DNA of 64,000 nt from Chloroflexota bacterium (GTDB taxonomy: Bacteria; Chloroflexota; Limnocylindria; Limnocylindrales; CSP1-4). The first letter of the stretch is position 1. Every line of letters begins with the position of its first letter. The stretch covers positions 2,921 to 66,920 of the forward strand of contig JBDTQW010000001.1 in assembly GCA_039931975.1 (NCBI GenBank), in the 5' to 3' direction. A program made the translations under genes and the position numbers. Below, in pieces: positions 3,818 through 51,106 of the stretch. Below the pieces are notes generated by a model. That model was given only the letters and a program-made list of their open reading frames with translations, did not search any database and was not told the origin of the DNA.

Positions 3818-4933
3818 ATGCGCGTCGTCTACACGGCCGGCCACCTCGGCCACGATCCCGTCAGCGAAACGATCATGGGCGAGGCCGTGCCGGCCTACGA
3901 AGTGCCCGAGCGGGCCGAGCGGATCCGTGGCGCGCTGGTCGCGGACGGCGGGTTCGACCTGGTCGAGCCTGACGAGCACGGTCTCGACCCTATCCTGGCC
4001 GTTCACGATCCCGGGCTTGTGCGCTTCCTCGAGGAGGCCTGGGCGCAGGCCCGGCGCGAGGGCCTGGTCCGGTCCGCGCTCATCCCCGACACGTTCCAGG
4101 TCCGGGGGTTGTCCGAGGGCTTCGGTCCCGAGTCCGAGCGACTCGTCCGAGAGCCGGCGTCGGTCCTCGGCCAGTCAGGTCGGTGGGGGCTCGATTCCAC
4201 GACCCCGATCGTGGCCGGGACGTATCGGGCCGCGCGCGGAGCGGTGGACACCGCCCTGACCGCGGTCGATCTCGTCCTCGACGGCGGCGAGACAGCCGTG
4301 TACGGGCTATGCCGGCCACCCGGCCACCACGCCGCTCGCTCGATGTATGGCGGCTACTGCTACTTCAACAACGCGGCGATCGCCGCCGAGTCGGTCGTCA
4401 GCCGGACCGGCGAGCGGGTGGCCGTCCTCGACCTCGACTACCACCATGGCAATGGCACCGAGCAGATCTTCTGGCGACGGGGCGACGTCCTGTATGTCTC
4501 GATCCATGCCGACCCGGATCGCCAGTACCCGTACTACCTGGGGCGCGCAGACGAGACCGGCGAGGGGCCCGGTGCCGGGGCCAACCTGAACCTGCCTCTC
4601 GAGGCCGGGGTCGAGGACGAGCGCTACCTGGCCGTGCTCGACCGCGCCCTCGAGGCGATCGGAGACACGCCCGGGTCGATCGTCGTCGTTTCGCTCGGCT
4701 TCGACACCTACGGCCACGACCCCATCTGCGACTTTGCCCTGACCACGCCGGTCTATCACGAGATCGGCCAGCGGGTCGCCGCGCTGGGGCGGCGGCTGGT
4801 CATCCTCCAGGAGGGCGGCTATCACCGGCCGAGTCTCGGGGAGAACGCCCGGACCTGGTTGCGTGGGGCCGAGGGTCGGCCGCTCGAGCCCATCCCGGCC
4901 GGGGGCTGGGGCTCGACCGGCACCCGGAGCTGA
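3818..4933 (+). CDS. Histone deacetylase-family protein, AcuC or acetylpolyamine amidohydrolase-like
   Basis: HDAC signature regions PPGHHA, DLDYHHGNGT and SLGFDTYGHD are all present. Confidence 0.85.
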   Translation: MRVVYTAGHLGHDPVSETIMGEAVPAYEVPERAERIRGALVADGGFDLVEPDEHGLDPILAVHDPGLVRFLEEAWAQARREGLVRSALIPDTFQVRGLSEGFGPESERLVREPASVLGQSGRWGLDSTTPIVAGTYRAARGAVDTALTAVDLVLDGGETAVYGLCRPPGHHAARSMYGGYCYFNNAAIAAESVVSRTGERVAVLDLDYHHGNGTEQIFWRRGDVLYVSIHADPDRQYPYYLGRADETGEGPGAGANLNLPLEAGVEDERYLAVLDRALEAIGDTPGSIVVVSLGFDTYGHDPICDFALTTPVYHEIGQRVAALGRRLVILQEGGYHRPSLGENARTWLRGAEGRPLEPIPAGGWGSTGTRS

Positions 4934-5025: not shown

Positions 5026-5712
5026 ATGTCCGTCCTGCCCGACCACGTCAAGAAGATCGTCGCCGAGATCGAGACCGAGATCGGCGACGAGCCCGGCGAT
5101 GCCGAATCCGCGATCGAGGGCGGCTCGCTGCGCGGTGATGACGGCAACGGTCGGGTTGAGGCGGCCGTCCGCGAGATCCTGACCGAGATCGGCGAGGAGC
5201 CCGACCGTGAGGGTCTGGTCGGGACCCCGGTCCGGGTCCATCGGATGTACACGGAGCTGACCGCCGGCTACCACGTCGACCCTGCCAGGCTGATGAACGG
5301 GGCGGTCTTCGAGGTCGACTACTCGGAGATGGTCGTCGTGAAGGACATCCCGTTCTATAGCCTGTGCGAGCATCATCTCCTGCCGTTCTTCGGCGCGGCG
5401 GCGGTGGCCTACATCCCGCGCGGCAGGGTCATCGGGCTGTCGAAGATCCCGCGCATCGTCGAGATGTACGCCCGGCGGCTGCAGGTCCAGGAGCGGATGA
5501 CCCAGCAGATCGCCGACTTCCTCCAGGATCACCTCTCCCCGCAGGGAGTCGGCGTCGTGGTCGAGGCGACCCACCTGTGCGCGGTGATGCGCGGCGTGCG
5601 CAAGCCAGGCACGGTCATGACCACGAGCGCGGTGCTTGGCCTGTTCCGCTCGCGCGACAAGACCCGGTCCGAATTCCTGGCCCACATCGAGCGCCGCGCA
5701 CCGGGCGTCTGA
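5026..5712 (+). CDS. folE: GTP cyclohydrolase I
   Basis: The CEHHLLPF active-site motif is present, and the length and conservation along the whole protein fit FolE. An AGGAG Shine-Dalgarno sequence lies upstream. Confidence 0.93.
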
Positions 5713-8353: not shown

Positions 8354-9888
8354 CCGACACGGTGACACCGAGCGAGCCGACGACCGACCGGCCGGCCGAG
8401 CCGCCCACGTATCGGCTGTTCGTCGACGGGGAGTGGGTCCCGTCCGGGACGGGGCGCACCTTCGAGAGCGTCAACCCCGCCGATACCCGCGACGTGATCG
8501 GACGCTTCCAGGCCGGCGACGCGGCCGATGCCGCCCGAGCCATCCGCGCGGCCGAGACCGCCTTCCCGGCCTGGCGGCGGACCCCGGCTCCCAAGCGCGG
8601 CGAGATCCTGTACCGCTTCGGTGCGCTCATGGCCGAGCACAAGGAGCGGCTCGCCCGGGCGATGACCCGGGAGATGGGCAAGGTCCTGGAGGAGGCCCGC
8701 GGAGATGTCCAGGAGGGCATCGACATCGCCTACCTGATGGCCGGTGAGGGCCGCCGCCTGTTGGGTGACACGACGCCATCCGAGCTGCCCGACAAGTGGG
8801 CGATGAGCATCCGCGAGCCGATCGGTGTGGCCGGGATCATCACCCCCTGGAACTTCCCGATGGCCATCCCGTGCTGGAAGTCGATGCCGGCGCTGGTGAC
8901 GGGCAACACGATCGTGCTCAAGCCGTCGAGCGACACGCCCCTTTGCGCGACCCTGCTGGTCGAGCTGATGGCCGAAGCCGGCTTCCCGCCGGGCACGGTC
9001 AACCTCGTTACCGGACCCGGCTCGGAAGTCGGCGACGCGATCGTGGCCAGCCCGGACGTCCAGGTCATCAGCTTCACCGGCAATACCCTGACCGGCAAGC
9101 GCATCGCCGAGATCGCCGCCCGCCGGCTCAAGCGGGTCAGCCTGGAGCTCGGCGGCAAGAACGGGATCATAGTCATGGCCGACGCCGACCTTGACCTGGC
9201 GACCGAAGGCATCCTGTGGTCGGCGTTCGGCACGACCGGCCAGCGCTGCACCGCCGCTTCGCGGGTCATCGTCGAGCAGGCCGTGCTCGGGTCACTCCTC
9301 GACCGGTTGGAGAGCCGCACCCGGGCGCTCCGGGTCGGCTCGGGGCTCGACCCCGCGACCGAGGTCGGGCCGCTGGTCAACGCCGGAGCGCTCGACAAGG
9401 TGGCGTCCTACATCGACGTCGGCAAGCGCGAGGGCGAGTTGCTGACCGGTGGCGTCCGGGCGACCGGAGCCGGCCTGGAGCACGGTCATTTCTTCGAGCC
9501 GACGATCTTCGCCGGGGTCAAGCCGATGGATCGGATCGCCCAGGAGGAGATCTTCGGACCGGTCCTCTCGATCGTCCCCGTGCCGGATTACCCGGCAGCC
9601 GTGACCGCCTTGAACCAGACCCGCTACGGGCTGTCTTCGTCGATCTTCACGAGCGACGCGAACACCGCCTTCCGGGCGATGCGCGACTTCGAGACCGGCA
9701 TCGTCTACGTCAACGCCGGGACGATCGGCGCCGAGACCCACCTCCCGTTCGGCGGCACGAAGGAGACCGGGAACGGCCACCGCGAGGCTGGTCACGCGGC
9801 ACTCGAGACGTATACGGAATGGAAGTCGATCTACGTCGACTTCAGCGGCCGGCTGCAACGGGCCCAGATCGACAACCAGCCCGACTGA
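8350..9888 (+). CDS. NAD(P)-dependent aldehyde dehydrogenase
   Basis: ALDH motifs are present: PWNFP, the ELGGKN glutamate site and the catalytic Cys region GQRCTAASR. The protein is full length at 512 aa. Confidence 0.9.
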   Translation: MTDTVTPSEPTTDRPAEPPTYRLFVDGEWVPSGTGRTFESVNPADTRDVIGRFQAGDAADAARAIRAAETAFPAWRRTPAPKRGEILYRFGALMAEHKERLARAMTREMGKVLEEARGDVQEGIDIAYLMAGEGRRLLGDTTPSELPDKWAMSIREPIGVAGIITPWNFPMAIPCWKSMPALVTGNTIVLKPSSDTPLCATLLVELMAEAGFPPGTVNLVTGPGSEVGDAIVASPDVQVISFTGNTLTGKRIAEIAARRLKRVSLELGGKNGIIVMADADLDLATEGILWSAFGTTGQRCTAASRVIVEQAVLGSLLDRLESRTRALRVGSGLDPATEVGPLVNAGALDKVASYIDVGKREGELLTGGVRATGAGLEHGHFFEPTIFAGVKPMDRIAQEEIFGPVLSIVPVPDYPAAVTALNQTRYGLSSSIFTSDANTAFRAMRDFETGIVYVNAGTIGAETHLPFGGTKETGNGHREAGHAALETYTEWKSIYVDFSGRLQRAQIDNQPD

Positions 9889-11918: not shown

Positions 11919-11993
11919 GGGCCGGTAGCTCAATGGCAGAGCAAGTGACTCTTAATCACTAGGTTGCGAGTTCGACCCTCGCCCGGCTCACCA
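11919..11993 (+). tRNA. tRNA-Lys (anticodon CTT)
   Basis: Folds as a cloverleaf by hand. The acceptor stem is GGGCCGG/CCGGCTC with one G-U pair. D-arm is GCTC-AATGGC-AGAGC. Anticodon stem is AGTGA/TCACT with loop CTCTTAA, giving anticodon CUU. T-arm is GCGAG-TTCGACC-CTCGC. The discriminator A and CCA are encoded. Confidence 0.85.
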
Positions 11994-16347: not shown

Positions 16348-17663
16348 GCGCACCCTCGCGCCGATCTGGGGTCGCGGGCCGGTCCTTCCGTGCCCTCTGG
16401 CTCGGGCAGACCGTTTCCGCGCTCGGGACCCAGGTGTCGCTCGTCGCCCTGCCCCTCGTGGCGGTCCTGGTCCTCCATGTCGGACCACTCGAGCTGGGGA
16501 TCCTGGCCGCCCTCGAGACGCTGCCGTACCTGGTCCTCGCCCTGCCGGCCGGCGTGTTCATCGATCGGGCGGATCGGCGCTGGACGATGATCGCCTGCGA
16601 TCTCGGTCGGGCGGTGGTGCTGGTCGGGACCGCGCTCGCCATCTTCACCGGCGTCGTGTCCATCGCCCTGCTGTGCGCGGTCGCCCTGGTGGTCGGCTCG
16701 CTGAGCGTCTTCTTCTCGGTCGCCTACAGCACGTATGTTCCGTCCATCGTCGAGGCCGACCAGCTTGTCGACGGCAACCAGCGGCTCGAGCTGTCCGACT
16801 CGGCGGCCCAGGTCCTCGGTCCGAGCATCGGCGGGACGGTCCTCCAGCTGGCCGGCGGAGCGGCCACCGCGGCGCTCGACGGCGTCTCCTACCTGGTCTC
16901 GGCGATCGCGATCCTGGCCGCCCGGCCGGTCCGCGAGCCCGAGCCTGCTTCACGACCGGAACGGATCGCCATGTTCGCCGGGATCGGCGAGGGACTCCGC
17001 CGGGTCGCCGGAGATCGTGTCTTGCGCGACCTGGCCGGGTCGACGGGTCTGTTCAACCTCGGCAGCGGGATGCTCCTGGCGGTCGTCGTCCTCTTCGCTA
17101 CGACTGAGGTCGGCCTCGATGCTGCGGGCTTCGGGTTGGTCTACGGGGTGGGTAACGTCGGCTTCATCCTCGGCGCATTGGCCGTCGGCGCGCTCACCAA
17201 GCGAGTCGGGGTCGGTCGCGCGTTCGCGTGGTCGACCTACCTCGGCGCCGTGGCGATGATCCTCATCGCGATCGCCGGCGGCGCCGCCGGCGCGCTGCTG
17301 CTCCTCGCCGGCCGGTTCGTCGGCGCCGTGGCGGCGCCCCTCTTCAACGTCAACGCGTTGAGCCTGCGCCAGGCCCGGGTGAGCGACGAGATCATGGGCC
17401 GGGTCAACGCCACGTTCCTGTTCATCGACTGGGGTCCCCTGCCGATCGGCAGTCTGCTCGGCGGCCTGCTGGCGGGCGCGCTCGGGCGGCGGGCGGCGCT
17501 CATCGCGGCGGCTGCGTGCGGCGTGGCCGGCGCGGTCTGGGTCCGGCTCTCACCGGCGGCTCGCTTGACCAGCCTGACTTCACCTGCGGACTCGGCCGCC
17601 AGGGGTGCGTCGCCCGTCGACGATCGCGACGACATCCCGCACGATCCGCGGCTGGTGGCGTAG
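16344..17663 (+). CDS. MFS transporter
   Basis: About 12 hydrophobic helices with MFS-like loop spacing. An MFS signature is present in the LALPAGVFIDRADRR region. The GTG start overlaps the HD-GYP stop. Confidence 0.85.
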   Translation: MSAPSRRSGVAGRSFRALWLGQTVSALGTQVSLVALPLVAVLVLHVGPLELGILAALETLPYLVLALPAGVFIDRADRRWTMIACDLGRAVVLVGTALAIFTGVVSIALLCAVALVVGSLSVFFSVAYSTYVPSIVEADQLVDGNQRLELSDSAAQVLGPSIGGTVLQLAGGAATAALDGVSYLVSAIAILAARPVREPEPASRPERIAMFAGIGEGLRRVAGDRVLRDLAGSTGLFNLGSGMLLAVVVLFATTEVGLDAAGFGLVYGVGNVGFILGALAVGALTKRVGVGRAFAWSTYLGAVAMILIAIAGGAAGALLLLAGRFVGAVAAPLFNVNALSLRQARVSDEIMGRVNATFLFIDWGPLPIGSLLGGLLAGALGRRAALIAAAACGVAGAVWVRLSPAARLTSLTSPADSAARGASPVDDRDDIPHDPRLVA

Positions 17664-17967
17664 CCGGCAGCACCGGGCCTTTGCCAAGGTTGGTGTAGGC
17701 TTCCTGACCGGACGCCGCGGGGAGGGCGTCGCAGGCGCAGCAGGGCCCGACTCGGGCAGCCACGACCGCGCCACAGGGCACTGTGGCCAGCCGTTCCACG
17801 GAACGGGATCGGCGGATCCCGTCACGCAGAGGAGCCGAACCCTGACCCCTGACGACCCGACGGCGGACGTCGAGAGCTTCGCGCCGCCCGTGGCGTATCC
17901 GAGCGCCGATCACGACCCCGCCCCTTCGAGTCGTACCTCGCGCCAGGCGACGGGGCCGCGGGGCCGG

Positions 17968-19506
17968 ATGGCGAGGCCGATGCTGGCGCGCGGCCGGACC
18001 GCCCGCTTCGGCGTCGGGTTGCTCAGCGCCCTGCTGCCCGGTCTCGGCCACCTGGCCACCGGCCGGCGGCGTCACGCCGCCGTCTTCCTGGCCCCGGTCC
18101 TGGTCGGCATCTTCGTCCTCGGAGTGGTCGTGGCGACGACCGACCGCTTCAGACTGGCCGCGTCCCTGGTCGACCCGGCCGTGATCTGGGGGATCCTCAT
18201 CGTCGAGGGGTTGTTCCTCGTCTGGCGGCTCGTGGCGGTCTTGTCGGCGATGGCCGACCGGTCGTTCCCGCGCTTCCGCGCGGCGGATGCGGTCGGGCTG
18301 CTGATCGTGCTCGCCGTCGTGGTCGTTCCCCAGGCCGGTCTCGGGCTGGTCACCTACACGGCCCAGGAGGCGGACTCGGAGGTCTTCGCCGGCGCCCCGT
18401 TCCCGAGCGAGGAACCGGAATCGCGCGCAGTGGTGGAGAGTCCCAACGGGTCCCTGTCGCCGTCTGCCGCCCCGTCACCGAGCGGCCCGCCGATGCCGCC
18501 CCGGGTCACGGTCCTGCTCATCGGGGTCGACTCGGGCGTGGGCCGCAACACCGCCCTGACGGACACGATGATCGTGGCCAGCCTGGACCCCGTCACCAGG
18601 ACCGTGTCCATGGTGTCGATCCCCCGCGACCTGGTCGACGCTCCGCTGCCCAAGGGCGGCAAGTTCAGCGCCAAGATCAACGGCCTGGTCGCCTGGGTCC
18701 GCTGGCACCCCGAGCAGTTCCCCGGCTACAACGGCCACGGTCAGGCCGTCCTGGCCTACTCGCTGGGCAAGATGCTCGGGGTCCACATCGACTACTACGC
18801 CCAGGTCGACCTGGGCGGCTTCGTGCAGACGGTCAACGCCGTCCGCGGCGTCGACATCAACGTCGACCACGCGATCTGCGACGCCGGCTACGACGAATAC
18901 GGTTTCAACGGCTACTCGATCGGGGCCGGCCGGCACCACATGAACGGCAATGCCGCCCTGGCGTACGCCCGGATCCGCCACTCGGCCGGCGAGAGCGACT
19001 TCACCCGCGCCGCCCGCCAGCAGCAGGTCGTCGTCGCGCTCAAGGACAAGATCGTCCGGGGCGGGTTCCTCGACGACCCGATCGGGCTGCTCAAGGCGAT
19101 CGGCAAGACTGTCCAGACCAACATCCCACCGGCGGTCGTCCGCGATCTTGCCCCACTTGCTGCCGACATCAGCTCGAAGGACATCTACAAGACCGTGGTC
19201 AGTCATCCCCTCGTCCGTCCCGGCTTCGACGCCCGCGGCTCGATCCAGCTTCCCGACTTCAAGAAGATCGCGACGCTCGGGGCAGCGATGTTCCCGACGG
19301 TCGGGACCCGGCCGGTCGACAAGTACGTGTCGAAGGCCCCGAGCGCGACGGCCAAGGGCCCGGCCCAGGCCGCCCCGCGCTGCGCCGTGCCGCCCAAGCC
19401 CAAACCCAAGCCGACGCCCAAGCCGACTCCGAAGCCGCCCCCCAAGCCGACCCCGACCCCGACCGACAGCACCCCGTCCGAGCCGCCGGCGTCGTCCGGC
19501 CCGTAG
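17968..19506 (+). CDS. LytR-CpsA-Psr (LCP) family cell-envelope phosphotransferase with a C-terminal Pro/Lys/Thr-rich low-complexity tail
   Basis: An N-terminal TM helix precedes the LCP core (LIGVDSGVGRNTALTDTMIVASLDP...SIPRDL...VDINVDHAI). The tail is PKPKPKPTPKPTPKPPPKPTPTPTD. The ATG at 17968 is in frame with the track ORF, and an alternative ATG lies at 17980. Confidence 0.8.
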   Translation: MARPMLARGRTARFGVGLLSALLPGLGHLATGRRRHAAVFLAPVLVGIFVLGVVVATTDRFRLAASLVDPAVIWGILIVEGLFLVWRLVAVLSAMADRSFPRFRAADAVGLLIVLAVVVVPQAGLGLVTYTAQEADSEVFAGAPFPSEEPESRAVVESPNGSLSPSAAPSPSGPPMPPRVTVLLIGVDSGVGRNTALTDTMIVASLDPVTRTVSMVSIPRDLVDAPLPKGGKFSAKINGLVAWVRWHPEQFPGYNGHGQAVLAYSLGKMLGVHIDYYAQVDLGGFVQTVNAVRGVDINVDHAICDAGYDEYGFNGYSIGAGRHHMNGNAALAYARIRHSAGESDFTRAARQQQVVVALKDKIVRGGFLDDPIGLLKAIGKTVQTNIPPAVVRDLAPLAADISSKDIYKTVVSHPLVRPGFDARGSIQLPDFKKIATLGAAMFPTVGTRPVDKYVSKAPSATAKGPAQAAPRCAVPPKPKPKPTPKPTPKPPPKPTPTPTDSTPSEPPASSGP

Positions 19507-19565
19507 CGACGCCGGAGAACGCCTCGCCGGGGTCGCCTCTGCTACCCTGTGCCAGGTCCTTGCAG

Positions 19566-19605
19566 CCGGTCCCGTGAGACCGGCGTACCGGTCCCGTGAG
19601 GCCGG
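19566..19605 (+). promoter_or_regulatory. Two tandem hairpins carrying the PyrR-binding-loop-like motif GGUCCCGUGAG(A/G)CCGG in the carA leader
   Basis: The sequences are CCGGTCCCGTGAGACCGG at 19566-19583 and CCGGTCCCGTGAGGCCGG at 19588-19605. Each is an inverted repeat (CCGGTC/GACCGG). The loop matches the PyrR box core consensus RUCCNGNGAGG. They lie just 5' of a GGAAGGGAGG Shine-Dalgarno sequence. Confidence 0.45.
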
Positions 19606-19624
19606 AAGGGAGGCTCGATCGAGC

Positions 19625-19696
19625 GTGTCCGCGCAGCTTCGCCGTGACCCGGTCCGCCTCCCGTTCCTCGTTCCGCCGGACGAATACCCGGCCTGA
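19625..19696 (+). CDS. Putative 23-codon leader peptide, translationally coupled to carA by a TGATG stop/start overlap
   Basis: GTG at 19625 follows the GGAAGGGAGG sequence. The ORF VSAQLRRDPVRLPFLVPPDEYPA ends with a TGA overlapping the carA ATG at 19696. Confidence 0.3.
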   Translation: MSAQLRRDPVRLPFLVPPDEYPA

Positions 19697-20856
19697 TGCA
19701 GATCCCGCCGTTCCCGCTGCCGAGCGCGATCGTCGACCCGCGAGTCGGCGACCTGGGCCCGGCGCTGCTGGCCCTGGCCGACGGGACGGTCTTTCCGGGG
19801 ATCGCCTTTGGGGCGCCGCTCGCCGCGGGCGGGGATCTCGTCGTGAACACCAGCCAGACGGGCTACCAGGAGGTCTGCACCGACCCGTCCTATGCGGGCC
19901 AGGTCGTGGTCATGACCTACCCACTCATCGGCAACTATGGCCGGTTACGCGACGACGACCAGTCCGAGCGACCCTGGCTGCGCGGGCTGGTCGTGGCCAA
20001 TGCCACGGCGGCCGTCGTCGAGAAGGCCGCCCAGTTGGCGGCGCTGCTTCGCGACCAGGGCATCCCGGCCATCGCCGGGATCGACACCCGGGCGCTGGCC
20101 CGCCATCTGCGGACCCACGGCTCGGTCCCGGGCTGGGTCGGGCCGCCCGGCGCCACGGACCCGGTCGCTGCCGTCGCGGCCGCCCGGGCGCTGCCCCGCT
20201 GGGAAGACCAGGACTTCGTCGAGCTGGTCTCACCAGAGGCACCGCGCGAGGTCGGTGACCCGGCGGCCGGCGGGCCGCTCATTGCGATCGTCGACTACGG
20301 CCTGAAGGCCAATATCGTGCGGTCGCTCCGTCGCCGCGGGGTCCGGGTGCGGATCCTGCCGCACACCGTCGCGCCGGCCGACGCGCTCGCCTCGGACGTG
20401 GACGGGCTGGTCCTGTCTCCTGGGCCCGGGGATCCATCGCGGCTGGCCGGCCCCGTGGCGCTGGCCAGGGCGGCCATCGCCGACGGGCGGCCGCTCCTGG
20501 GGATCTGCCTGGGTCATCAGATCGTGGGCCGGGCGGCCGGGGCCGACACCCGCCGTCTCCGCTTCGGGCATCACGGCGCCAACCACCCCGTCCGCGACGT
20601 CGACAGCGGGCTGGTCCAGGTGACCGCCCAGAACCACGAGGTCCAGGTCGTCGCCGACTCGCTCCCCGCCCGCGGCGGCTTTCACGTCAGCCAGGTCAAC
20701 CTCAACGACGGGTCGGTCGAGGGGCTGCGTCACCGCGAGCTCCCGATCGAGACCGTCCAGTACCACCCCGAGGGGGCCCCGGGGCCGCTCGACGCACTGG
20801 CCGTGTTCGACCGGTTCGTGACCGCCTGTGCCATACGCCGGGGCGCCTCGTCGTGA
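19696..20856 (+). CDS. carA: Carbamoyl-phosphate synthase small (glutamine amidotransferase) subunit
   Basis: The GATase catalytic region GICLGHQ is present, as is the CPSase small-chain N-terminal domain. The gene is adjacent to and overlaps carB. Confidence 0.93.
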   Translation: MQIPPFPLPSAIVDPRVGDLGPALLALADGTVFPGIAFGAPLAAGGDLVVNTSQTGYQEVCTDPSYAGQVVVMTYPLIGNYGRLRDDDQSERPWLRGLVVANATAAVVEKAAQLAALLRDQGIPAIAGIDTRALARHLRTHGSVPGWVGPPGATDPVAAVAAARALPRWEDQDFVELVSPEAPREVGDPAAGGPLIAIVDYGLKANIVRSLRRRGVRVRILPHTVAPADALASDVDGLVLSPGPGDPSRLAGPVALARAAIADGRPLLGICLGHQIVGRAAGADTRRLRFGHHGANHPVRDVDSGLVQVTAQNHEVQVVADSLPARGGFHVSQVNLNDGSVEGLRHRELPIETVQYHPEGAPGPLDALAVFDRFVTACAIRRGASS

Positions 20857-23800
20857 GTGGTGCCGGGGCTCCGGAATCGGTCCTCATCCTTGGCTCAGGC
20901 CCCGTCGTCATCGGCCAGGCGGCCGAATTCGACTATGCCGGCACGCAGGCCTGTCGCGCGCTCCGCGCCGAGGGCGTCCGGACCATCCTGGTCAATTCCA
21001 ACCCCGCCACGATCATGACCGACCCGACCGTCGCCGACGTGGTCTACCTCGAGCCGCTCACGGTCGAGGCCGTCGAGGCCGTGATCGCCCGGGAACGTCC
21101 CGAGGGTCTGCTGGCCGGGCTGGGCGGCCAGACGGCCCTCAACCTGGCGGTCGCGCTGGCCCGTGCGGGGGTCCTGGAGCGCCATGGAGTCCGGCTCATC
21201 GGCACCCCGCTCGCGGCGATCGAGATGGCCGAGGATCGCGAGCTGTTCCGATCCCTTCTGGACCGGATCGGCCAGCCCTACGCCCCGTCCTGGATCGTCG
21301 AGGGCGCCACGGCCGAGGAGCGCAAGGATTCGGCCGACGCGGCGCTGCACGAGATCGGCCTGCCGGCGATCGTCCGACCGGCGTTCACCCTGGGTGGCAC
21401 CGGCGGCGGGATCGTCGAGACCGAGACGGCCTACCGCGAGCGGGTCCGGGCCGGCCTGAGGGCCAGCCCGATCGGCCAGGTCATGGTCGAGCGCTGCCTG
21501 GTCGGCTGGGGCGAGATCGAATACGAGGTGATGCGCGACGCCGACGACACGTGCATCGCCGTGTGCTCGATGGAGAATGTCGATCCGCTGGGGGTCCACA
21601 CCGGCGACTCGATCGTGGTGGCCCCGGTCCAGACCCTGCCCGACGCGGTCCACCAGCGACTCCGCAGCGCGGCACTGGCGATCATCAGGGCGCTCGGCGT
21701 CGAGGGCGGCTGCAACGTCCAGTTCGCGCTCAGCCCGGATTACGAGGACTTCGCGGTCATCGAGGTCAACCCGCGGGTCAGCCGGTCCTCGGCGCTGGCC
21801 AGCAAGGCGACCGGCTACCCCATCGCCCGAGTCGCGGCCCAGATCGCAGCCGGACGCCGCCTGGCCGAGATCCCCAACGTGGTGACCGGCACGACCGTGG
21901 CCGCCTTCGAGCCGGCGCTCGACTACGTGGTGGTCAAGCTGCCTCGTTTCCCGTTCGACAAGTTCCCGACCGCAGACCGGACGCTGGGCAGCCAGATGAA
22001 GGCGACCGGCGAGGTGATGGCGATCGACCGGACCTTCGGTTCCGCTCTGAACAAGGCGCTGCGCGGGCTGGAGCAGGCCGGCGTCGGCCCGCTGGCCGAG
22101 GATCCGGCCTGGGAGCCCAGCCTGGCTTACCTGGCGGCCGTTCTGGCTCGGTCGGCCGACGCCGCGACCGACGAGACCGATGCGGACGATGAGGCCGACG
22201 GGCCGATCCGCTGGGTCGACGCGGACGGACAGGCCTGCGAATCGACCCGTCACGCCGAGCGCGCCGCGGCCCCGATCGTCCTGCGTCAGTTCCTCGGTCC
22301 ATCCGACACGCGGCTGTGGCGCGTCCTGGCGCTGTTGCGGCGAGGGGTGGCCGAGGCCACCGTCCACGAGGCCACCGGGATCAACCCCTGGTTCCTGGCC
22401 GAGTTCGGGCGGGCCGTCGGCCTCGAGCACGACGTGGCGACGCTCGGCCCGCGCCTGACCGATCCCACCGATCCAGAGGCCGCGACCCTTCTGGCCACCG
22501 CGAAGCGGGCCGGCTTCGGCGACCGCGAGCTGGCCACGCTGGCCGGCGTGGAACCGGACGACCTGGCCCGGACCCGCGACGCGCTTGGCCTCCGGCCGGG
22601 CTACGCGATGGTCGACACGTGCGCCGCCGAGTTCGCCGCGGAGACGCCCTACTTCTACGCCACGTACGCCGCCGCGGGTTCGCCGCCGGAGGCCCCACCG
22701 GTGGCCCGACCGGCTGCCCTGGTCATCGGCTCAGGGCCGGTCAGGATCGGCCAGGGGATCGAGTTCGACTATTGCGCCGTCCATGCCGCGGAGTCCCTCC
22801 GGCGCCAGGGCTGGTCGGCGGTCATGATCAACTCGAACCCCGAGACCGTTTCGACCGACTTTGACGCCAGCACCCGGCTCTACTTCGAGCCACTCGACTC
22901 GGAGTCCGTGCTGAGCGCGATCGAGGCCGAGACCGGGCTCGGCGCCGAGACCCTGCCGGCCTTCGTCCAGTTCGGTGGCCAGACACCGCTCAACCTGGCG
23001 GCCAGGCTGGCTGCCGCCGGTGTCCCGCTCCTTGGCGCCGATCTCGAGGCGATCGACCAGTCCGAGGAGCGGACTCGTTTCGCCGCGCTGCTCGACCGAC
23101 TGGGCATCCCCCAACCCGAGGGTGGGATGGCCCACAGCGTCGAGGAAGCGCTCACGATCGCCGATCGGATCGGCTACCCGGTCATCGTCCGTCCGTCGTT
23201 CGTCATCGGGGGGCTGGCCATCGACTTTGCCTACTCGGCCGGCGACCTCGTCCGGCAGCTGGCGATGGCGACCGTGGTCGACCCCGACCGGCCCGTCCGG
23301 ATCGACCGCTATCTCGAGGGCGTCGAGGTCGACGTCGACGCGATCTCGGACGGGAACGACGTGCTGATCCCCGGCCTGCTCGAGCACATCGAGCGTGCCG
23401 GCGTCCACTCCGGAGACTCGGTCGGGGTCTTCCCGCCGCAGACCGTCTCGCCGGGCGATCGCGAACTGATCGTGACGACCATGGAGCGTGTCGTCCGGGC
23501 CCTGGGCGTGCGCGGCCTGGTCAACGCCCAGTTCATCGTCCGCGACGATGGCGTGTACCTCATCGAGGTCAACCCGCGGGCATCGCGGACGGTGCCGTTC
23601 CTGAGCAAAGTGACCGGCGTGCCGATGGTCGACCTGGCCGTCCGGATCGCCCTCGGCGAGACGCTCCGGGAGATGGGCTGGCCGGGTGGCCTGTTGCCGC
23701 CCCCGCCGTTCGTCGCGGTCAAGGCGCCGGCCTTCTCGACGGCCAAGCTGCGTGGGGTCGACCCTTCGGTCGGGCCAGGCATGCAGTCGACCGGGGAGGT

Positions 23801-24332
23801 CATCGGCATCCACGAGGACCCCAGGGTGGCCCTGGCCAAGGCGCTCCTCGGCGCTGCGCTGGTGCCGCCCCGGGCGGGTCCCGACGGCGCGCTCGCCCTG
23901 CTGACGATCGCCGATCGCGACAAGCCCCTGCTCGGGCGCCTTGCGGCGGGGCTGGCCCGGGCCGGCTACCGGTTCGCGGCGACCGCCGGCACGGCGGCCG
24001 CCCTCGCCGCCCTCGGCTACGAGTCCCGGCCCGTCGCGAAGTACGGGGCGGGGGAGGGGGCCGAGGGGGAGGGGTCCGAGAGCGTCGCGATCATGGATCT
24101 CATCGAGTCCGGCGAGATCCACCTCGTGGTGAACACGCCGACCCCCCAGTCGGGCGCCGTCCGCGACGCGGCCGAGATCCGGCTGGCGGCCACCGCCGAG
24201 GGGATCCTGTGCCTGACCGCGATCGAGACCGCGGTGGCCGCCGCAGAGGCACTCGATCCGGCCGTCGTGGATCGGCTGGCCGAGGTCCGCCCGCTCGGGG
24301 AGTGGGTGACGGGCGCGCGCGTCGCGGTCTAG
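20853..24332 (+). CDS. carB: Carbamoyl-phosphate synthase large subunit
   Basis: There are two ATP-grasp halves, an oligomerisation domain and a C-terminal MGS-like domain. The protein is 1159 aa. The GTG start overlaps the carA stop. Confidence 0.95.
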   Translation: MSGAGAPESVLILGSGPVVIGQAAEFDYAGTQACRALRAEGVRTILVNSNPATIMTDPTVADVVYLEPLTVEAVEAVIARERPEGLLAGLGGQTALNLAVALARAGVLERHGVRLIGTPLAAIEMAEDRELFRSLLDRIGQPYAPSWIVEGATAEERKDSADAALHEIGLPAIVRPAFTLGGTGGGIVETETAYRERVRAGLRASPIGQVMVERCLVGWGEIEYEVMRDADDTCIAVCSMENVDPLGVHTGDSIVVAPVQTLPDAVHQRLRSAALAIIRALGVEGGCNVQFALSPDYEDFAVIEVNPRVSRSSALASKATGYPIARVAAQIAAGRRLAEIPNVVTGTTVAAFEPALDYVVVKLPRFPFDKFPTADRTLGSQMKATGEVMAIDRTFGSALNKALRGLEQAGVGPLAEDPAWEPSLAYLAAVLARSADAATDETDADDEADGPIRWVDADGQACESTRHAERAAAPIVLRQFLGPSDTRLWRVLALLRRGVAEATVHEATGINPWFLAEFGRAVGLEHDVATLGPRLTDPTDPEAATLLATAKRAGFGDRELATLAGVEPDDLARTRDALGLRPGYAMVDTCAAEFAAETPYFYATYAAAGSPPEAPPVARPAALVIGSGPVRIGQGIEFDYCAVHAAESLRRQGWSAVMINSNPETVSTDFDASTRLYFEPLDSESVLSAIEAETGLGAETLPAFVQFGGQTPLNLAARLAAAGVPLLGADLEAIDQSEERTRFAALLDRLGIPQPEGGMAHSVEEALTIADRIGYPVIVRPSFVIGGLAIDFAYSAGDLVRQLAMATVVDPDRPVRIDRYLEGVEVDVDAISDGNDVLIPGLLEHIERAGVHSGDSVGVFPPQTVSPGDRELIVTTMERVVRALGVRGLVNAQFIVRDDGVYLIEVNPRASRTVPFLSKVTGVPMVDLAVRIALGETLREMGWPGGLLPPPPFVAVKAPAFSTAKLRGVDPSVGPGMQSTGEVIGIHEDPRVALAKALLGAALVPPRAGPDGALALLTIADRDKPLLGRLAAGLARAGYRFAATAGTAAALAALGYESRPVAKYGAGEGAEGEGSESVAIMDLIESGEIHLVVNTPTPQSGAVRDAAEIRLAATAEGILCLTAIETAVAAAEALDPAVVDRLAEVRPLGEWVTGARVAV

Positions 24333-25804
24333 GGTTCGCGGGGCACGACCGCGGTCGTGGGCGTGAACGCTGGCCCGGTCGCCTCCGGTGTCTCGCTCAC
24401 CACGGCCTGGCCGAGCGACCACAGGGTCAGCGCGGTCAGACCGACCATGAGAAGGGCCAGCGGAACCTGGCGCAGCTGAACGGACCCGATCCCTGCGCCG
24501 GACGGGCTAACGGACGGTCCGCTCGCCTCGAGGACGGCGGTCCGGTGGCCGGCCCACGCACCAACGACGTGGCCGCCGACGACGGCCACGAGCTGGATGC
24601 TCCAGGCGACCGCTCCCGGCAGCCAGTCGGTGGCGGGCTCGAATTCGCCGATCCCGAGCAGGTCCCAGCCCTGGCCCAGTGGATCGGAGAAGGCGAGGAG
24701 GATCCGCTGCCCGTCGAACGCGACGAAGGTCAGGTAATGGGCGATCAGGTAGCCGATCGAGATCGGGATCAGGCCCGCAACCAGTGCCCGGATCCCGACG
24801 ACCCGACCGACGGCGATCGCGATCCCGGCCATCAGCCCAAGCCAGGCGGCCAGGAGCAGCGTCTGCTCGAGGATGGTGGGCACCCCGAACAGATCGAAGA
24901 AGATCTGGGTCTGGGACAGGCCGTCGAACAGGATGCCGCCGACTGACAACGCGACCAGGACGAGGCTAGCCAGGTCCGTACCCGGCTCGAGCAGCCCGGC
25001 GCCGAAGGACCGGACGCGGAGCTGCTCCGGCTCTCCCGGCTCGGGCTCGTGCTCCTTCGCGTGCAGGTGAGCGAGTGGTGCGATCCGGCCGACCAGGTCG
25101 AACCAGACCGAGAAGACCTCGCCGTTCTGCCGCCAGGCAGTCGGCCCGAACTGGACCATCCCCGCGACGGTCACGACCGTATAGCCAAGCAGGACGATCC
25201 CGAGGGCCCGACCGCCGGCTGTCGCCGGCACGGCCAGCTCGAACCAGATGAACACCGCCAGGCCGAGGACCGCCGGCCAGCGCCCAAGCCACTCGGGGTA
25301 GGGCGCCGGCGGAGCCCCGGCGACGCCGACGCCCCGGAGGGTCCAGGAGCCGAGTCGGTGGAGCGTCGAGAACGGGTCCAGCCAGGTCCAGGCCGGCCCG
25401 ACGAACGCGCAGATCAGGGCCAGCCCGACCCAGCCGTACGTCCACAGGAAGAGCGAGGCGACGTCGCCCGGTGATGCCCCATCGAGCACGACCGAGCGCA
25501 GGACGATCCAGATCCAGGCCAGCAGGCCGATAGCGGCGAGGACGCGGCGGACGACCGCCGGGACCCGGACGACCCGTTCATCGCTCGGTGCGGAGGGCGC
25601 GAGCTGCGCGCCGGCCGCGCGGGCTCCCATCACGACGACGGCGAACGACGCGGCGACGGCGAACGCCGCCCCGATGAGATAGGCACCCAGCGGGATCGGC
25701 GACGGGAACCGTCCGGTCAGCTCGTGAGCGGCGGCGATCCCCGGGGATGCGAGATAGGCCACGGCGATCGCGGCCGCGAGGGCGAGGGTCGCGCCGATCC
25801 GCAT
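24329..25804 (-). CDS. Polytopic integral membrane protein of unknown function
   Basis: The ATG at 25804 gives an N-terminal signal/TM region (MRIGATLALAAAIAVAYLASPGIAAAHEL). There are ten or more hydrophobic helices. The track ORF's Arg-rich upstream extension is unlikely to be translated. The stop overlaps the carB stop. Confidence 0.6.
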   Translation of the reverse strand: MRIGATLALAAAIAVAYLASPGIAAAHELTGRFPSPIPLGAYLIGAAFAVAASFAVVVMGARAAGAQLAPSAPSDERVVRVPAVVRRVLAAIGLLAWIWIVLRSVVLDGASPGDVASLFLWTYGWVGLALICAFVGPAWTWLDPFSTLHRLGSWTLRGVGVAGAPPAPYPEWLGRWPAVLGLAVFIWFELAVPATAGGRALGIVLLGYTVVTVAGMVQFGPTAWRQNGEVFSVWFDLVGRIAPLAHLHAKEHEPEPGEPEQLRVRSFGAGLLEPGTDLASLVLVALSVGGILFDGLSQTQIFFDLFGVPTILEQTLLLAAWLGLMAGIAIAVGRVVGIRALVAGLIPISIGYLIAHYLTFVAFDGQRILLAFSDPLGQGWDLLGIGEFEPATDWLPGAVAWSIQLVAVVGGHVVGAWAGHRTAVLEASGPSVSPSGAGIGSVQLRQVPLALLMVGLTALTLWSLGQAVVSETPEATGPAFTPTTAVVPREP

Positions 25805-25872
25805 CTGGAGGTGGCGCCGGCGGAACGGATCAGATCGGATCACGTGCCCCGAGTCTAGCTCGCGACGGCCGA

Positions 25873-27405
25873 TCAGGGTTCGGCGGAGAGGCCCTTCGGG
25901 CCGACACCGACCGACGTCCTGGAAAGGTCGCGTCCGGTCGACGACAGCGCACCCCGGACCGGGTTCACGACGTCTGCGGTCAGCGTCCACGTACCGGCGT
26001 CGGGCGGAGCCACGAGGGCGACGCTCAGCGCAACGGCCTGACCGGGCGCCAGCTCGGCGGGCACCTCGGCCGCCGGCAGCTCGGTGCCGTCGTCCGATCG
26101 CCAGGACAGGACGAACAGGGTCGGGGTCGCGGGCGCGATCGTCCGAGTGCCTTCCGCCTCGAGGACGGGCGTCCGCCAATCGAGCGAGCCGATGTTGGCC
26201 AGACCGACCTTTACCTTGAACCGTTCGCCGGCGGTGACGTCACCGACCGCGGGCAGGCTGACCCTGGCGGCAAACGGATCCACGACCTCGACGACGACGG
26301 TGCGGAAGGACCGCGATGGCGTCCTATGGCCGACCTCCGTCAGCCCGAGGCTGAGTCGATACCGACCGGGGATCGTCGGCACCGGGACCGCCGCGCGGAA
26401 CCCCGACGAGCTGGGCCGATCGGGAGCCGACGAGGTCGTCGCAGCGACGGGCGGGGGAGGGAGTCCCGCACCCGGCGACGCACCGTCGAGCACGGCTCGC
26501 AGGAGCCGCGGCGGCTGGGCCACTCGCGCCGCTGCCACGGGTACCCAGCGGCCGACGAAGCGGTGGGCCGCCGGGTTCGGGAAGCCACTCGAGATGTGCA
26601 GGCCGACCGACACCCGGAGGACCGACCCTGCGACCGCCGTCGTCGCGAGCCGGGGGCTGGTCAGGTCATAGGCGTGATCGGTCAGCGGCGCGGTCTGGGG
26701 CTGGTGGCGGACCGGAGTCGCCGCGGCCATCACCTTGCCGCGGTCGATCGTGGCGAAGCGATGAAGCGCCTCGACGTTGATCCACTCGCCGGGATAGTGG
26801 CCCTCGGCGAGGGGGTCCATCAGCCAGACCTTGCCGTGGATCCGGTCGTACGTCTGGATGTAGACGGCGTGGCTGTTGTTGCGGCGGTTGGCGAAGGCCC
26901 GGTCCCAGCGCGTGAAATACGCCGACAGCCGGCCGTACTCGCCGATGAGCACCGCTCCGCCGTTGTGCTCGATCCGATCCAGGAGCTGCCACCAGGTCAT
27001 CGTGTCGCCGGACCCCGGCGAGAAGCGCAGGCGGATCCCGGTGACTGCCCCGACGCCACGCGCCAGGTTGTACAGGCTCGAGCCGCCCTTCTTGTCGTTG
27101 GATGCGCGGCGCAGGACACTCTGGCTGACCCGGACGCCCCCATGGGTCCACTTGTCGACGAGCATCGCCCCCGCCGCCCACACGCAGTTCTTCTTCATCT
27201 GCCAGACGCGATGGGGGGTGTACTCGCGGGTCGGCCGATCGGGCGACGACGTCGCTTCAGCCGGGACCGGGGTCAGCCACGTCGCGTCAGCTTGGGCGGG
27301 CAGGGTGGCAGCGGATCCGGCGACCACGACCAGTCCCACGACGACGCGCGCGATGAGGCGCAGAGATCGGGCGCGTCGGGTCAGGGGTGGGACATCGTGG
27401 GGCAC
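25873..27405 (-). CDS. Secreted protein with an N-terminal C39-like (papain-fold) peptidase domain and a C-terminal beta-rich domain
   Basis: A signal peptide is present (LRLIARVVVGLVVVAGSAATLPAQA). A Cys motif QMKKNCVWAAGAML resembles the C39-like/BtrH_N catalytic region. Downstream His residues could complete a catalytic site. Confidence 0.5.
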   Translation of the reverse strand: MPHDVPPLTRRARSLRLIARVVVGLVVVAGSAATLPAQADATWLTPVPAEATSSPDRPTREYTPHRVWQMKKNCVWAAGAMLVDKWTHGGVRVSQSVLRRASNDKKGGSSLYNLARGVGAVTGIRLRFSPGSGDTMTWWQLLDRIEHNGGAVLIGEYGRLSAYFTRWDRAFANRRNNSHAVYIQTYDRIHGKVWLMDPLAEGHYPGEWINVEALHRFATIDRGKVMAAATPVRHQPQTAPLTDHAYDLTSPRLATTAVAGSVLRVSVGLHISSGFPNPAAHRFVGRWVPVAAARVAQPPRLLRAVLDGASPGAGLPPPPVAATTSSAPDRPSSSGFRAAVPVPTIPGRYRLSLGLTEVGHRTPSRSFRTVVVEVVDPFAARVSLPAVGDVTAGERFKVKVGLANIGSLDWRTPVLEAEGTRTIAPATPTLFVLSWRSDDGTELPAAEVPAELAPGQAVALSVALVAPPDAGTWTLTADVVNPVRGALSSTGRDLSRTSVGVGPKGLSAEP

Positions 27406-31850: not shown

Positions 31851-31942
31851 TCCGGCCCGGGTTCGCGCGAGTTCGTCAGCTCTACGAGCGTCCGGACCAG
31901 CTGGACCGAATAGGTGGTTCGCAGACCGCGGGGTGCAGTGAC

Positions 31943-31968
31943 TGAAACCTTGGGGCGTCGGCGTGTCT
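31943..31968 (+). promoter_or_regulatory. Candidate ECF-sigma-type promoter, TGAAAC-N16-GTCT, upstream of the acidic-protein/sigma/anti-sigma unit
   Basis: The -35-like hexamer is at 31943-31948 and the GTCT is at 31965-31968. This is about 60 nt upstream of the 32029 start. Confidence 0.3.
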
Positions 31969-32028
31969 CGATGACAGTGAGCCGCCAAGGACTGCGGCGT
32001 CCCGAACCGTCACACGGGGGATCCCGTT

Positions 32029-32484
32029 TTGGACAACAAGCGAACGCTCAAGGCCATCGGAAGCGGTGCCGCTGCGGCGCTCATCCTGGCCGGTGTCACC
32101 CTCGGCGCGGATGCGCTTCTGCGAGTGCCGGTCGCGACCCAGTCGGTCGTGCTGACCGCCGACGAGACCAATCCGGCTACCACCCCGGCGGCGCCCGAGA
32201 CGCCCGGCGCGGCCGATACCCGCGAGGCGCCCGAGACGCCCGATGCGGCCGAGACCCCCGAGCCGACGGAGACGCCCAAGGCCAAGAAGCCCGGCACGTC
32301 GAGCGCGACCGACAGGTCGAGCGCAACCGACACGGACGGCGACGTCGAAGACGAGAGCGACGACAAGGACGATGGCGACGTCAACGACGATCATGATGGG
32401 AGCGGCGACCACGACAACGGCGATGCCAGCGACGACCACGACGGCGACGACGCCGGTGGCGACGACGGCAGCGGCGACGACTGA
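32029..32484 (+). CDS. Secreted, extremely acidic low-complexity protein. It has a signal peptide, APETP-type repeats and an Asp-rich tail.
   Basis: The N-terminus MDNKRTLKAIGSGAAAALILAGVTLGADA reads as a signal peptide. Pro/Glu/Thr repeats follow. The last ~60 residues are about 50% Asp. Confidence 0.5.
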   Translation: MDNKRTLKAIGSGAAAALILAGVTLGADALLRVPVATQSVVLTADETNPATTPAAPETPGAADTREAPETPDAAETPEPTETPKAKKPGTSSATDRSSATDTDGDVEDESDDKDDGDVNDDHDGSGDHDNGDASDDHDGDDAGGDDGSGDD

Positions 32485-32621
32485 GACCGCGTCAGGGCCA
32501 TCCCATGGGTCCGTTCGGCCCCGCTGAGGTGACCAACGGCCCATGCCGGTGGGACGACCGCCGGACGCATCATCGGACCGGAGACCGCCGGCTCGACGCA
32601 TCGGATCGGCGGCTCTGGTGA

Positions 32622-33290
32622 ACCGGAGCTCACAGGATCGAAAACGCCGCCACCTCGATCACGTCCGGACGATCGCCCGCGGACATCGAAGCCCGCCGGG
32701 CGGTCGAGGCCGTCCTCGGCGGCGACCGTGACGCGTTTCGGGTCCTCGTCGAGCGCGAATCCGCATCGGTGGTTCGCACCTGTTATCGGGTCCTCGGCGA
32801 CCTTCACGAGGCCGAGGACGCAGCCCAGGAGGCATTCGTGATCGCGTATCGCTCGCTCGCCGGTTGGCGCGGCGACGGCTCGTTCGGCGCCTGGCTCGGC
32901 CGGATCGCCGTGCGCAACGCGGTCCGTCGGGCGAAGGCGCGCCGAACGACCGCCCGGATCGATCCGGCCGACCCGGATCGCCTGATGGGCTCTGGTGCGA
33001 GCGAAGGCGCAGACCGGGCCGGACTCGCCGCGCTGGCGCTGGGGATCGGCCGCTCGAACGATCCGGCGGTCCTGAGCCTTCGCGCGGAGCGCGCCAACGC
33101 GCTGCGGCTGGCCGTGGCCCGCCTGGATGAGCCCTATCGCGAGACGGTCATGCTCCGGTTCTATGGCGAGCTGTCGCTCGCCGAGATCGCGGCCCAGACA
33201 GGTCGCCCGATCGGGACCGTCAAGACGCATCTCTTCCGCGGGCTCGCGAAGTTACGGGCCATCACGGCCAGCGAAGGTTTCGACCGGTGA
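32622..33290 (+). CDS. ECF (sigma-70 family) RNA polymerase sigma factor. The start codon is unresolved. The frame is open from 32622, and the first canonical start is GTG at 32769.
   Basis: Region 2 reads ...EARRAVEAVLGGDRDAFRVLVERESASVVRTCYRVLGDLHEAEDAAQEAFVIAYRSL, a textbook ECF region 2.1-2.2. Only the part after GTG 32769 follows a canonical start codon. Region 4 is ETVMLRFYGELSLAEIAAQTGRPIGTVKTHLFRGL. Confidence 0.8.
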   Translation, partial: TGAHRIENAATSITSGRSPADIEARRAVEAVLGGDRDAFRVLVERESASVVRTCYRVLGDLHEAEDAAQEAFVIAYRSLAGWRGDGSFGAWLGRIAVRNAVRRAKARRTTARIDPADPDRLMGSGASEGADRAGLAALALGIGRSNDPAVLSLRAERANALRLAVARLDEPYRETVMLRFYGELSLAEIAAQTGRPIGTVKTHLFRGLAKLRAITASEGFDR

Positions 33291-33979
33291 CCAACCTGTT
33301 CCACCCGAGCGAGCTGACCGGCGGGGATGCCGTCCAGCCGACCACGGCGGATCTGGGGCAATCGCTGTTGATCGCCCGTGAGCTCGAGAGCCTCCTGGCG
33401 GCAACGGACGTCCACCCGTCGGATCGGTTCGTCGATCGAGTCATGTCCGCGGTCGTGGCGCAGCCGCTCCCGCAGCCGGCCGTGGCGGCCGGGCTGGCCC
33501 TCCGAGGGGGACGGTTCGGGGCGATGCTCGCCGCCCTTGCCGACAACTGGCGGATCACCTTCAGCGGCGATCACCCATTCCCGGTTCGCGCCCAGGCCCT
33601 GGCCTTCGTCCTCGTCGCCGTTCTCGCCCTTGGCTCAGTGGGTGGGGTGGCGACGATCGGTGCCGTTCGCCTGCTCGGGCCGGCACCCAGCGTGGCCGCT
33701 CCGGCTCCGACGCAACAAGGCCCGGTGGTTGAGCCGACGCCGAGCCCGGTGCTCGGCCCGATCATCGCTCCGACGGATCACGAGGGCACCCCAGAACCGA
33801 GCACGACGCCCGAGCCGACAGAGACCGCCGAGCCGACCGAGGGGCAGGGCCCTGCCAAGACCCCGCGGGGGACCGAGACGGCTCAGCCCTCGGAGACCGA
33901 CGAACCGAAGGAGACCGACGAACCGAACAAGACCGAGGAGCCGGGCCACGGTCACGTGGACGGCGCCAGCCCCGACTGA
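33287..33979 (+). CDS. Anti-sigma factor. An N-terminal cytoplasmic segment is followed by a TM helix and a Pro/Thr/Glu-rich extracytoplasmic tail.
   Basis: The GTG start overlaps the sigma stop. The TM segment is ALAFVLVAVLALGSVGGVATIGAV. The gene is co-located with the ECF sigma. No conserved enzymatic motif is present. Confidence 0.6.
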   Translation: MTNLFHPSELTGGDAVQPTTADLGQSLLIARELESLLAATDVHPSDRFVDRVMSAVVAQPLPQPAVAAGLALRGGRFGAMLAALADNWRITFSGDHPFPVRAQALAFVLVAVLALGSVGGVATIGAVRLLGPAPSVAAPAPTQQGPVVEPTPSPVLGPIIAPTDHEGTPEPSTTPEPTETAEPTEGQGPAKTPRGTETAQPSETDEPKETDEPNKTEEPGHGHVDGASPD

Positions 33980-34041
33980 AGTCTTCGAGCCGCGGCGACC
34001 GACCGCGGCGAGGGGCGACCCCGAGGCGCTACCCTCGTCGG

Positions 34042-49028: not shown

Positions 49029-49037
49029 CCCCGGCGG

Positions 49038-50117: not shown

Positions 50118-50157
50118 GCGGCGCCCATCCGAGCGGGTCGCGTGTAGACTCGGCGCC

Positions 50158-51090: not shown

Positions 51091-51106
51091 GCCGGGACCG
51101 CCTGCC

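Follow-up and report, generated by a model that had tools for sequence, protein, structure and literature searches.

The 64,000-nt stretch of DNA analysed here (the window; GenBank assembly GCA_039931975.1, contig JBDTQW010000001.1, positions 2,921 to 66,920) comes from a Chloroflexota bacterium of the Limnocylindria and has a G + C content of 71%. It carries carA and carB, the genes of carbamoyl-phosphate synthase, and this report concerns the leader in front of them, which consists of two near-identical hairpins resembling the binding loop of the regulator PyrR, a Shine-Dalgarno (SD) sequence and a short open reading frame (ORF) ending on the carA start codon. The features of the locus, in window coordinates, are as follows (MFE, minimum free energy; UTR, untranslated region; P1, the closing stem; R1, the covariance model described below; L numbers designate relatives and other loci used for comparison).

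17605-19506: gene of an LCP protein (Pfam PF03816), the upstream neighbour of the leader.
19540-19548, + strand: putative extended -10 promoter TGCTACCCT (TGnTAnnnT), placed by conservation.
19555-19561, + strand: 5' strand of P1, GGUCCUU (MFE fold, RNAalifold, counterpart of CCUUU in RF00515).
19566-19583, + strand: PyrR-box hairpin 1, 6-bp stem CCGGUC/GACCGG, hexaloop CCGUGA (sequence, covariation, R1).
19584-19587, + strand: 4-nt linker CGUA (the majority of the 28 aligned leaders have CGTA).
19588-19605, + strand: PyrR-box hairpin 2, stem strands CCGGUC and GGCCGG, hexaloop CCGUGA, with the full consensus (identity to an 18-mer of L197).
19606-19615, + strand: AAGGGAGG(CU), serving both as the SD sequence of the leader ORF and as the 3' strand of P1 (sequence, UTR fold).
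19625-19696, + strand: leader ORF, GTG plus 22 codons plus TGA, VSAQLRRDPVRLPFLVPPDEYPA (sequence, 23 relatives).
19659-19670, + strand: anti-SD stretch GCCUCCCGUUCC, complementary to 19604-19614, with a hypothetical role.
19696-20856, + strand: carA, small subunit of carbamoyl-phosphate synthase (PF00988 plus PF00117).
20853-24332, + strand: carB, large subunit (Pfam CPSase_L_D2, D1, D3 and MGS).

Direct reading of the sequence gave an intergenic region of 189 nt between the LCP gene and carA. The preliminary description of this locus, made from the letters of the DNA, had placed here a strong SD sequence followed by a 23-codon ORF whose TGA overlaps the carA ATG, and it was accurate to the base. 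The SD core AAGGGAGG spans 19606-19613 with a gap of 0 nt to hairpin 2, and the leader TGA (19694-19696) and the carA ATG (19696-19698) share one base (TGATG). No SD of its own was seen for carA when its start context was read, and an earlier carA start is excluded because of an in-frame TGA at 19645-19647. The carB GTG start, in turn, overlaps the carA stop codon (GTGA). The description had also put carAB outside a pyr operon, behind an LCP gene. This holds as well, as the upstream gene matches PF03816 and Pfam searches revealed no other pyr gene among the genes of the 64 kb, so that carAB stands alone. The leader ORF was also considered as a frameshifted N-terminal extension of carA, of the kind found in L156; this reading was rejected, since the window has about 47 nt more than L156 and contains the in-frame stop at 19645-19647.

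The CarA protein of the window is 70-83% identical to CarA of metagenome-assembled Candidatus Limnocylindrales and uncultured Chloroflexota, while beyond Limnocylindria-like genomes the best identity is about 50% or less. The tandem form of the element lies in front of carA or carB at about 30 loci of Limnocylindria-like Chloroflexota and was seen nowhere else among the matches listed. It lies before carA in 14 of the 15 closest genome loci and before carB only in the fifteenth, L001. An alignment of 28 leaders (A1) was used for the comparison of columns, and 23 relatives, with the window left out, served as the input of both the covariance model R1 and RNAalifold. R1 scores positions 19552-19619 of the window at 74.4 bits (E = 2e-19), the next match in the 64 kb reaching 16 bits. 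Neither R1 nor a pattern scan detected a second copy of the tandem element in the 64 kb, and the single-box pattern with up to one mismatch shows no enrichment there (5 observed, 2.6 expected).

In the loops of A1, little or no variation is found at the C.G.GA bases and the flanking G, in contrast to the two N positions, which are free to vary. The linker ranges from 2 to 7 nt among the leaders, and the box-adjacent SD is kept in all relatives. Conservation starts at the TGnTAnnnT motif, of which columns T5, G6, T8, A9 and T13 are invariant or nearly so across the 28 leaders, and the sequence farther upstream is unconserved. Judging from this layout, transcription probably starts at about 19555, so that the mRNA would begin with GGUCCUU.

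The consensus fold of the 23 relatives obtained with RNAalifold is a three-way junction, in which the 5' CCUU pairs with the SD as the closing stem and the two hairpins are enclosed. The MFE fold of the UTR likewise pairs 19555-19561 with the SD, and P1 is present in nearly all UTR folds. In the two-hairpin fold, 98.5% of the cells are paired and two pairs carry compensatory double changes; against column shuffles, the counts were 0 of 500 for pairing and 12 of 500 for compensatory pairs. For hairpin 1 taken separately, 98.8% of the cells are paired, with 2 compensatory pairs. One long hairpin formed from both repeat units, which is often the MFE structure, was rejected, as it had no compensatory support, did not rise above the shuffles and would have to accommodate a linker of 2 to 7 nt. 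The tandem element is best interpreted as a canonical PyrR binding loop in which the upper hairpin has been duplicated and the SD serves as the 3' strand of the closing stem.

According to its alignments with L197 and L026, the consensus of the Rfam PyrR binding site model RF00515 comprises a lower stem CCUUU/AAGG, a 5' bulge UAA, a 6-bp upper stem ending in U.G and C-G pairs, and a hexaloop CaGaGA. The residues of L197, a locus upstream of pyrR, that align to the upper stem-loop of the model (CCGGUCCCGUGAGGCCGG) are exactly those of hairpin 2 of the window. Hairpin 2 thus has the upper stem and the C-N-G-N-G-A hexaloop of RF00515, and hairpin 1 has them too except for a U-A pair that replaces U.G. 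For the lower stem, the pairing UCCUU/AAGGG is predicted, but two hairpins are enclosed, the bulge differs and the SD pairs elsewhere in the full leader. As in a functional PyrR regulon, the element forms the leader of pyrimidine genes, lying directly before carA-carB.

The context of such boxes was assessed by scanning a metagenome collection with the pattern CCGGTCCNGNGAGGCCGG, which returned at least 120 loci. Among the matches listed, 53 have the context CCUUUAA-N(1-3)-box-N(0-1)-AAGGRG, and pyrR follows within about 170 nt in all 53. These pyrR-linked boxes are all single, two hairpins in one closing stem being found in 0 of the 53 leaders. About 15 further matches listed are tandem boxes, and these are followed by carA (70-81% identity to the window) or carB (72-86%) wherever the locus reaches far enough. 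The remaining matches listed, about 50, have neither context and look like coding DNA in which the pattern occurs by chance. The earlier claims that both hairpins are of the PyrR type and that their tandem arrangement is unusual were therefore borne out, the first by the sequence, the identity to the L197 18-mer and the 53 pyrR contexts, the second by the restriction of tandem boxes, among the matches listed, to carA and carB of one clade.

Two loci with box-like hairpins stand apart from these groups. L170 has two such hairpins without a recognisable downstream gene and is uninformative. In L086 (317-334; metagenome contig Ga0105048_10018968), a single CCGGUCCUGUGAGGCCGG hairpin without the CCUUUAA/AAGG context is followed by a terminator-like hairpin with a U-run and then by purA (MPATIVVGLQWGDEGKGK). 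The L086 box could be a chance match or reflect PyrR-type control of a purine gene.

The leader ORF was identified in 23 relatives, where it has 18-39 codons and starts 5-12 nt past the box-adjacent SD. Its peptide sequence is unconserved, and its stop codon overlaps or directly abuts the start of carA or carB in all 23, about 19 of them with a 4-nt NTGA overlap. Three output designs were distinguished. In the first, represented by about 16 relatives (e.g., L002, L005, L009, L010, both cassettes of L012, L021, L133, L142, L147 and L152), the leader ORF carries an intrinsic terminator, a strong hairpin (about -19 to -25 kcal/mol) with a U-run behind it. The second, a leader ORF without a terminator, is that of the window, L006, L008, L108, L157, L186 and L190. 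In the third there is no separate leader, and the SD belongs to a carA or carB with an N-terminal extension (L114, L156, L011 and the carB cassette of L001).

The single-box leaders of pyrR show a similar range. Among the matches listed, 18 of the 53 are direct, with the SD on pyrR itself, and 24 have a leader ORF of 12-52 codons with a stop codon that overlaps or abuts the pyrR start. Since 24 of the 53 share it, the coupled leader ORF is a common design of high-GC PyrR leaders and not a peculiarity of the window. Because the box-adjacent SD sits directly on carA or carB in some relatives and on pyrR in 18 of the 53, it is this SD that is the controlled element. The window itself combines the mycobacterial type, with the SD adjoining the 3' side of the binding loop and no terminator, with the part of the Thermus type in which a box-adjacent SD leads to a short ORF whose stop lies over the start of the regulated gene. 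The terminator that the Thermus type has inside the leader ORF was not found: a terminator scan of 19400-19800 was empty, no downstream intrinsic terminator or antiterminator was seen in the window, and the best hairpin of the window leader (-11 kcal/mol) lacks a U-tail.

Two relatives illustrate how the cassette is distributed. L012 (PMYK01000029.1) has two complete cassettes about 3.5 kb apart, one before carA and one before carB (3898-3937 and 8619-8658), each of which runs from a TGCTAnnCT promoter through tandem boxes and an SD to a terminator-containing leader ORF with a stop/start overlap. In L001, which has the closest CarA (83%), carA has no box, and the tandem boxes lie directly before carB without a leader ORF (3650-3680, 5043-5090). 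The carA mRNA of L001 is apparently leaderless, as the -10 motif TGCTACGCT sits 7 nt before its GTG.

Taken together, we consider it likely that a stand-alone carAB operon has its promoter and 5' leader at 19540-19696 and is controlled by PyrR, a pyrimidine-sensing RNA-binding protein. When uridine nucleotides are abundant, PyrR would bind the hairpins, stabilise the closing stem P1 of the three-way junction and sterically cover the SD. With the SD covered, ribosomes would not load on the 23-codon leader ORF, and carA, translated by termination and reinitiation from that ORF, would fall with it. This dependence of carA on ribosomes terminating the leader ORF is suggested by the lack of a separate SD for carA and by the base common to the carA ATG and the leader TGA. 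At low pyrimidine levels the SD would be free, the leader would be translated, and carA and then the overlapped carB would be made. In relatives of the first design, an untranslated leader would additionally let the terminator form and end transcription. The preliminary description had left the choice between PyrR-mediated attenuation and translational control; as no terminator is present, control in the window is most likely translational rather than by transcription attenuation.

Several observations weigh against this reading. The match to RF00515 expected from the preliminary description did not appear: the model had no match in the window at the gathering threshold (54 bits), none at E <= 10 in 19450-19800 (351 nt) and none at E <= 10 in five tandem relatives. 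The U-A pair of hairpin 1, at a position with a strong preference for U.G, may make this hairpin a weaker site. With PyrR as the query, tblastn did not find pyrR in the 64-kb window or in the flanks of the relatives, and no pyrR was located in any Limnocylindria-like sequence searched. The 11 pyrR loci long enough to judge all have carAB inside a pyr operon, with CarA 38-54% identical to that of the window. A generic sigma-70 scan gave no match at the putative promoter, which is therefore, like the transcription start, placed by conservation only. The spacing from the SD to the GTG is long (11 nt). The whole leader region is not more stable than its shuffles (z = -0.85 and -1.15), and its full-length fold places the SD with the downstream anti-SD instead of the 5' strand, so that P1 is not the sole candidate for sequestering the SD.

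The outcome with RF00515 has to be read together with its sensitivity. The model has 115 positions and includes a Firmicute-type spacer hairpin and terminator. In a control with 20 metagenome leaders that have an identical hairpin in canonical context directly before pyrR (L113, L124, L159 and L195 are among the pyrR leaders tested), one, L197, reached the gathering threshold. As the model misses 19 of 20 genuine high-GC pyrR leaders, its miss here is uninformative and no refutation. The leader is not an Rfam-defined member, since the model failed on it, but in its proposed action it works like one. The generic promoter and terminator scans were likewise too insensitive to be useful.

The lineage of the pyrR loci bears on the identity of the binding factor. 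The 11 judged loci were assigned to other lineages because their carAB genes lie in a pyr operon and their CarA proteins are 38-54% identical to that of the window. In a nucleotide comparison, the pyrR-bearing metagenome contigs matched Limnocylindria-like DNA in carB only, at about 70%, and G + C content did not discriminate between lineages. No assignable pyrR-linked box belongs to the clade of the window. This, the negative searches for pyrR and the failure of RF00515 to recognise the element speak for a reading in which the hairpins are real regulatory sites bound by another factor, such as a diverged phosphoribosyltransferase-like protein or an unrelated RNA-binding protein, or sense a metabolite directly. 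A still more unusual case, a clade that lacks pyrR and in which another factor has taken over the box, is conceivable. We nevertheless regard another binder as improbable: the stem-loop is identical base for base to boxes upstream of pyrR (53 of 53 canonical contexts among the matches listed), its conserved bases are those that define the PyrR consensus, the regulated genes belong to the pyrimidine pathway, and pyrR was searchable only in the 64-kb window plus about 9 kb per relative.

A different alternative accepts the boxes as PyrR sites and regards the short ORF as incidental, with PyrR acting by mRNA decay, Rho-dependent termination or direct occlusion and with carA initiating independently at its ATG. 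The unconserved peptide agrees with it, as do three relatives without a separate leader ORF and the start codon of the window, a GTG at 11-nt spacing; open frames are also common in GC-rich DNA, and that of the leader ORF is open from 18950. Nonetheless, each of the 23 relatives with a separate leader ORF has the leader stop overlapping the carA or carB start or right next to it, despite differing lengths and sequences, the same arrangement recurs in 24 pyrR leaders of other lineages among the matches listed, carA lacks its own SD, and the box-adjacent SD is always followed by a start codon. An incidental ORF is thus quite improbable.

That the hairpins are the terminator of the LCP gene, or a repetitive palindromic element unrelated to carAB control, is a poor fit and scarcely credible: they are GC-rich inverted repeats 60 nt past the LCP stop codon (19506), but they have no U-tract, the terminator scan was empty, the LCP stop is separated from the hairpins by a conserved putative promoter, no further copy occurs in the 64 kb, and the upstream neighbour differs among relatives (a tRNA gene in L011, the region after carA in L012 and L001), with the cassette always before carA or carB.

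Within the PyrR reading, the anti-SD stretch deserves separate mention. In the MFE structure of the full leader, the SD region 19604-19614 forms an 11-bp helix with GCCUCCCGUUCC at 19659-19670, with a duplex energy of -21.2 kcal/mol (shuffle p of about 0.013). Comparable stretches are present in four other terminator-less leaders (L157, with p of about 0.01, L190, L108 and L186) and in 0 of 16 terminator-containing leaders. The anti-SD may, as far as the modelled folds go, be an SD lock that replaces the terminator, and it is treated here only as a lead. Combined with the doubled box, it would make the leader a terminator-free, co-transcriptional translational attenuator, in which two PyrR dimers bind the doubled box cooperatively and decide whether the pioneer ribosome loads on the leader ORF, and in which, if it does not, the anti-SD at 19659-19670 locks the carAB message off. 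We regard this combined scheme as rather unlikely as a whole. If it were true, the anti-SD would functionally replace the intrinsic terminator of the sister leaders, and one sensor would be served by three interchangeable read-outs, namely a terminator, an SD lock and direct SD occlusion.

Other features of the window were also recorded. A tRNA-Lys(CUU) gene lies at 11919-11993, and a near-identical tRNA gene is found close to carA in L004, L009, L013 and L108 and right in front of the boxes in L011. Two regions, 24329-27405 on the minus strand, which is directly downstream of carB and opposite to it, and 31882-34000, contain long ORFs with high third-position G + C and no Pfam match. Positions 41517-45104 encode a 1195-aa protein with double zinc ribbons, an adenylate/guanylate cyclase domain and an AAA_16 ATPase. 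The cluster at 45766-58367 resembles a CO-dehydrogenase or xanthine-dehydrogenase maturation locus, with molybdopterin-binding subunits, a CoxE-like VWA protein, XdhC, a MobA-like nucleotidyltransferase and a 2Fe-2S subunit.

PyrR leaders belong to the textbook examples of RNA-level control by a protein. To our knowledge, they have been described almost solely from Firmicutes, mycobacteria and Thermus. With the pyr attenuators of Firmicutes (RF00515; BL1-BL3 of Bacillus subtilis) the window shares the upper 6-bp stem, the closing U.G and C-G pairs, the C-N-G-N-G-A hexaloop, a pyrimidine-rich 5' CCUU that pairs with AAGG 3' of the hairpin, and the position in the leader of a pyrimidine gene. 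Unlike them, it has two upper hairpins on one closing stem, a 5' bulge GCAG instead of UAA, no antiterminator or terminator, and a closing stem whose 3' strand is the SD, and it is not matched by RF00515.

In Mycobacterium smegmatis, pyrR is reportedly subject to PyrR-dependent translational repression, as described by Fields and Switzer in 2007, with an SD located within or beside the 3' side of the loop that PyrR binds. The window resembles this system in its high G + C, the lack of a terminator and the SD at the box, and the direct layout recurs in L114, L156, L011 and the carB cassette of L001. It differs in that the repressed cistron would be the leader ORF coupled to carA, the box is doubled and carAB lies outside a pyr operon.

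For the pyr operon of Thermus ZO5, Van de Casteele et al. are said to have proposed leader-peptide-coupled PyrR attenuation in 1997. As there, the box of the window lies at the ribosome-binding site of a short leader ORF, whose translation would decide downstream expression, and the relatives L002, L005, L009, L012, L133 and L147 have a strong hairpin with a U-run inside the leader ORF. In contrast to Thermus, the boxes of the window are in tandem, and they would regulate carA (carA or carB in the clade) rather than pyrR-pyrB. Because the window has no terminator, just the translational half of the Thermus ZO5 scheme is applicable to it.

The stand-alone carB of Lactococcus lactis is reportedly controlled by PyrR as well (Martinussen and Hammer are said to have described this in 1998). 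It shares with the window the proposed PyrR control of carbamoyl-phosphate synthetase genes apart from a pyr operon, and unlike the window it has a Firmicute-type single-box attenuator with terminator and antiterminator and no leader ORF.

The variant described here is conserved throughout the clade, in an uncultured class of Chloroflexota, and is wired to the only carAB genes seen. Its three output modules on one sensor form a natural series for the interconversion of attenuation and translational repression, and its two adjacent sites could address cooperative or threshold-shifted PyrR control of carbamoyl phosphate supply. As the Rfam model misses nearly all high-GC leaders, PyrR regulons are under-annotated in Actinobacteria-like and Chloroflexota genomes. 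PyrR control of stand-alone carbamoyl-phosphate synthetase genes, SD-occluding boxes and leader-ORF-coupled leaders all have precedents among the systems above. We know of no earlier description of two PyrR hairpins inside one closing stem. What appears to be new in the window and its relatives is this doubled hairpin in one closing stem, which a whole class-level clade has kept and employs as a cassette in front of carA, carB or carAB, with three output modules.

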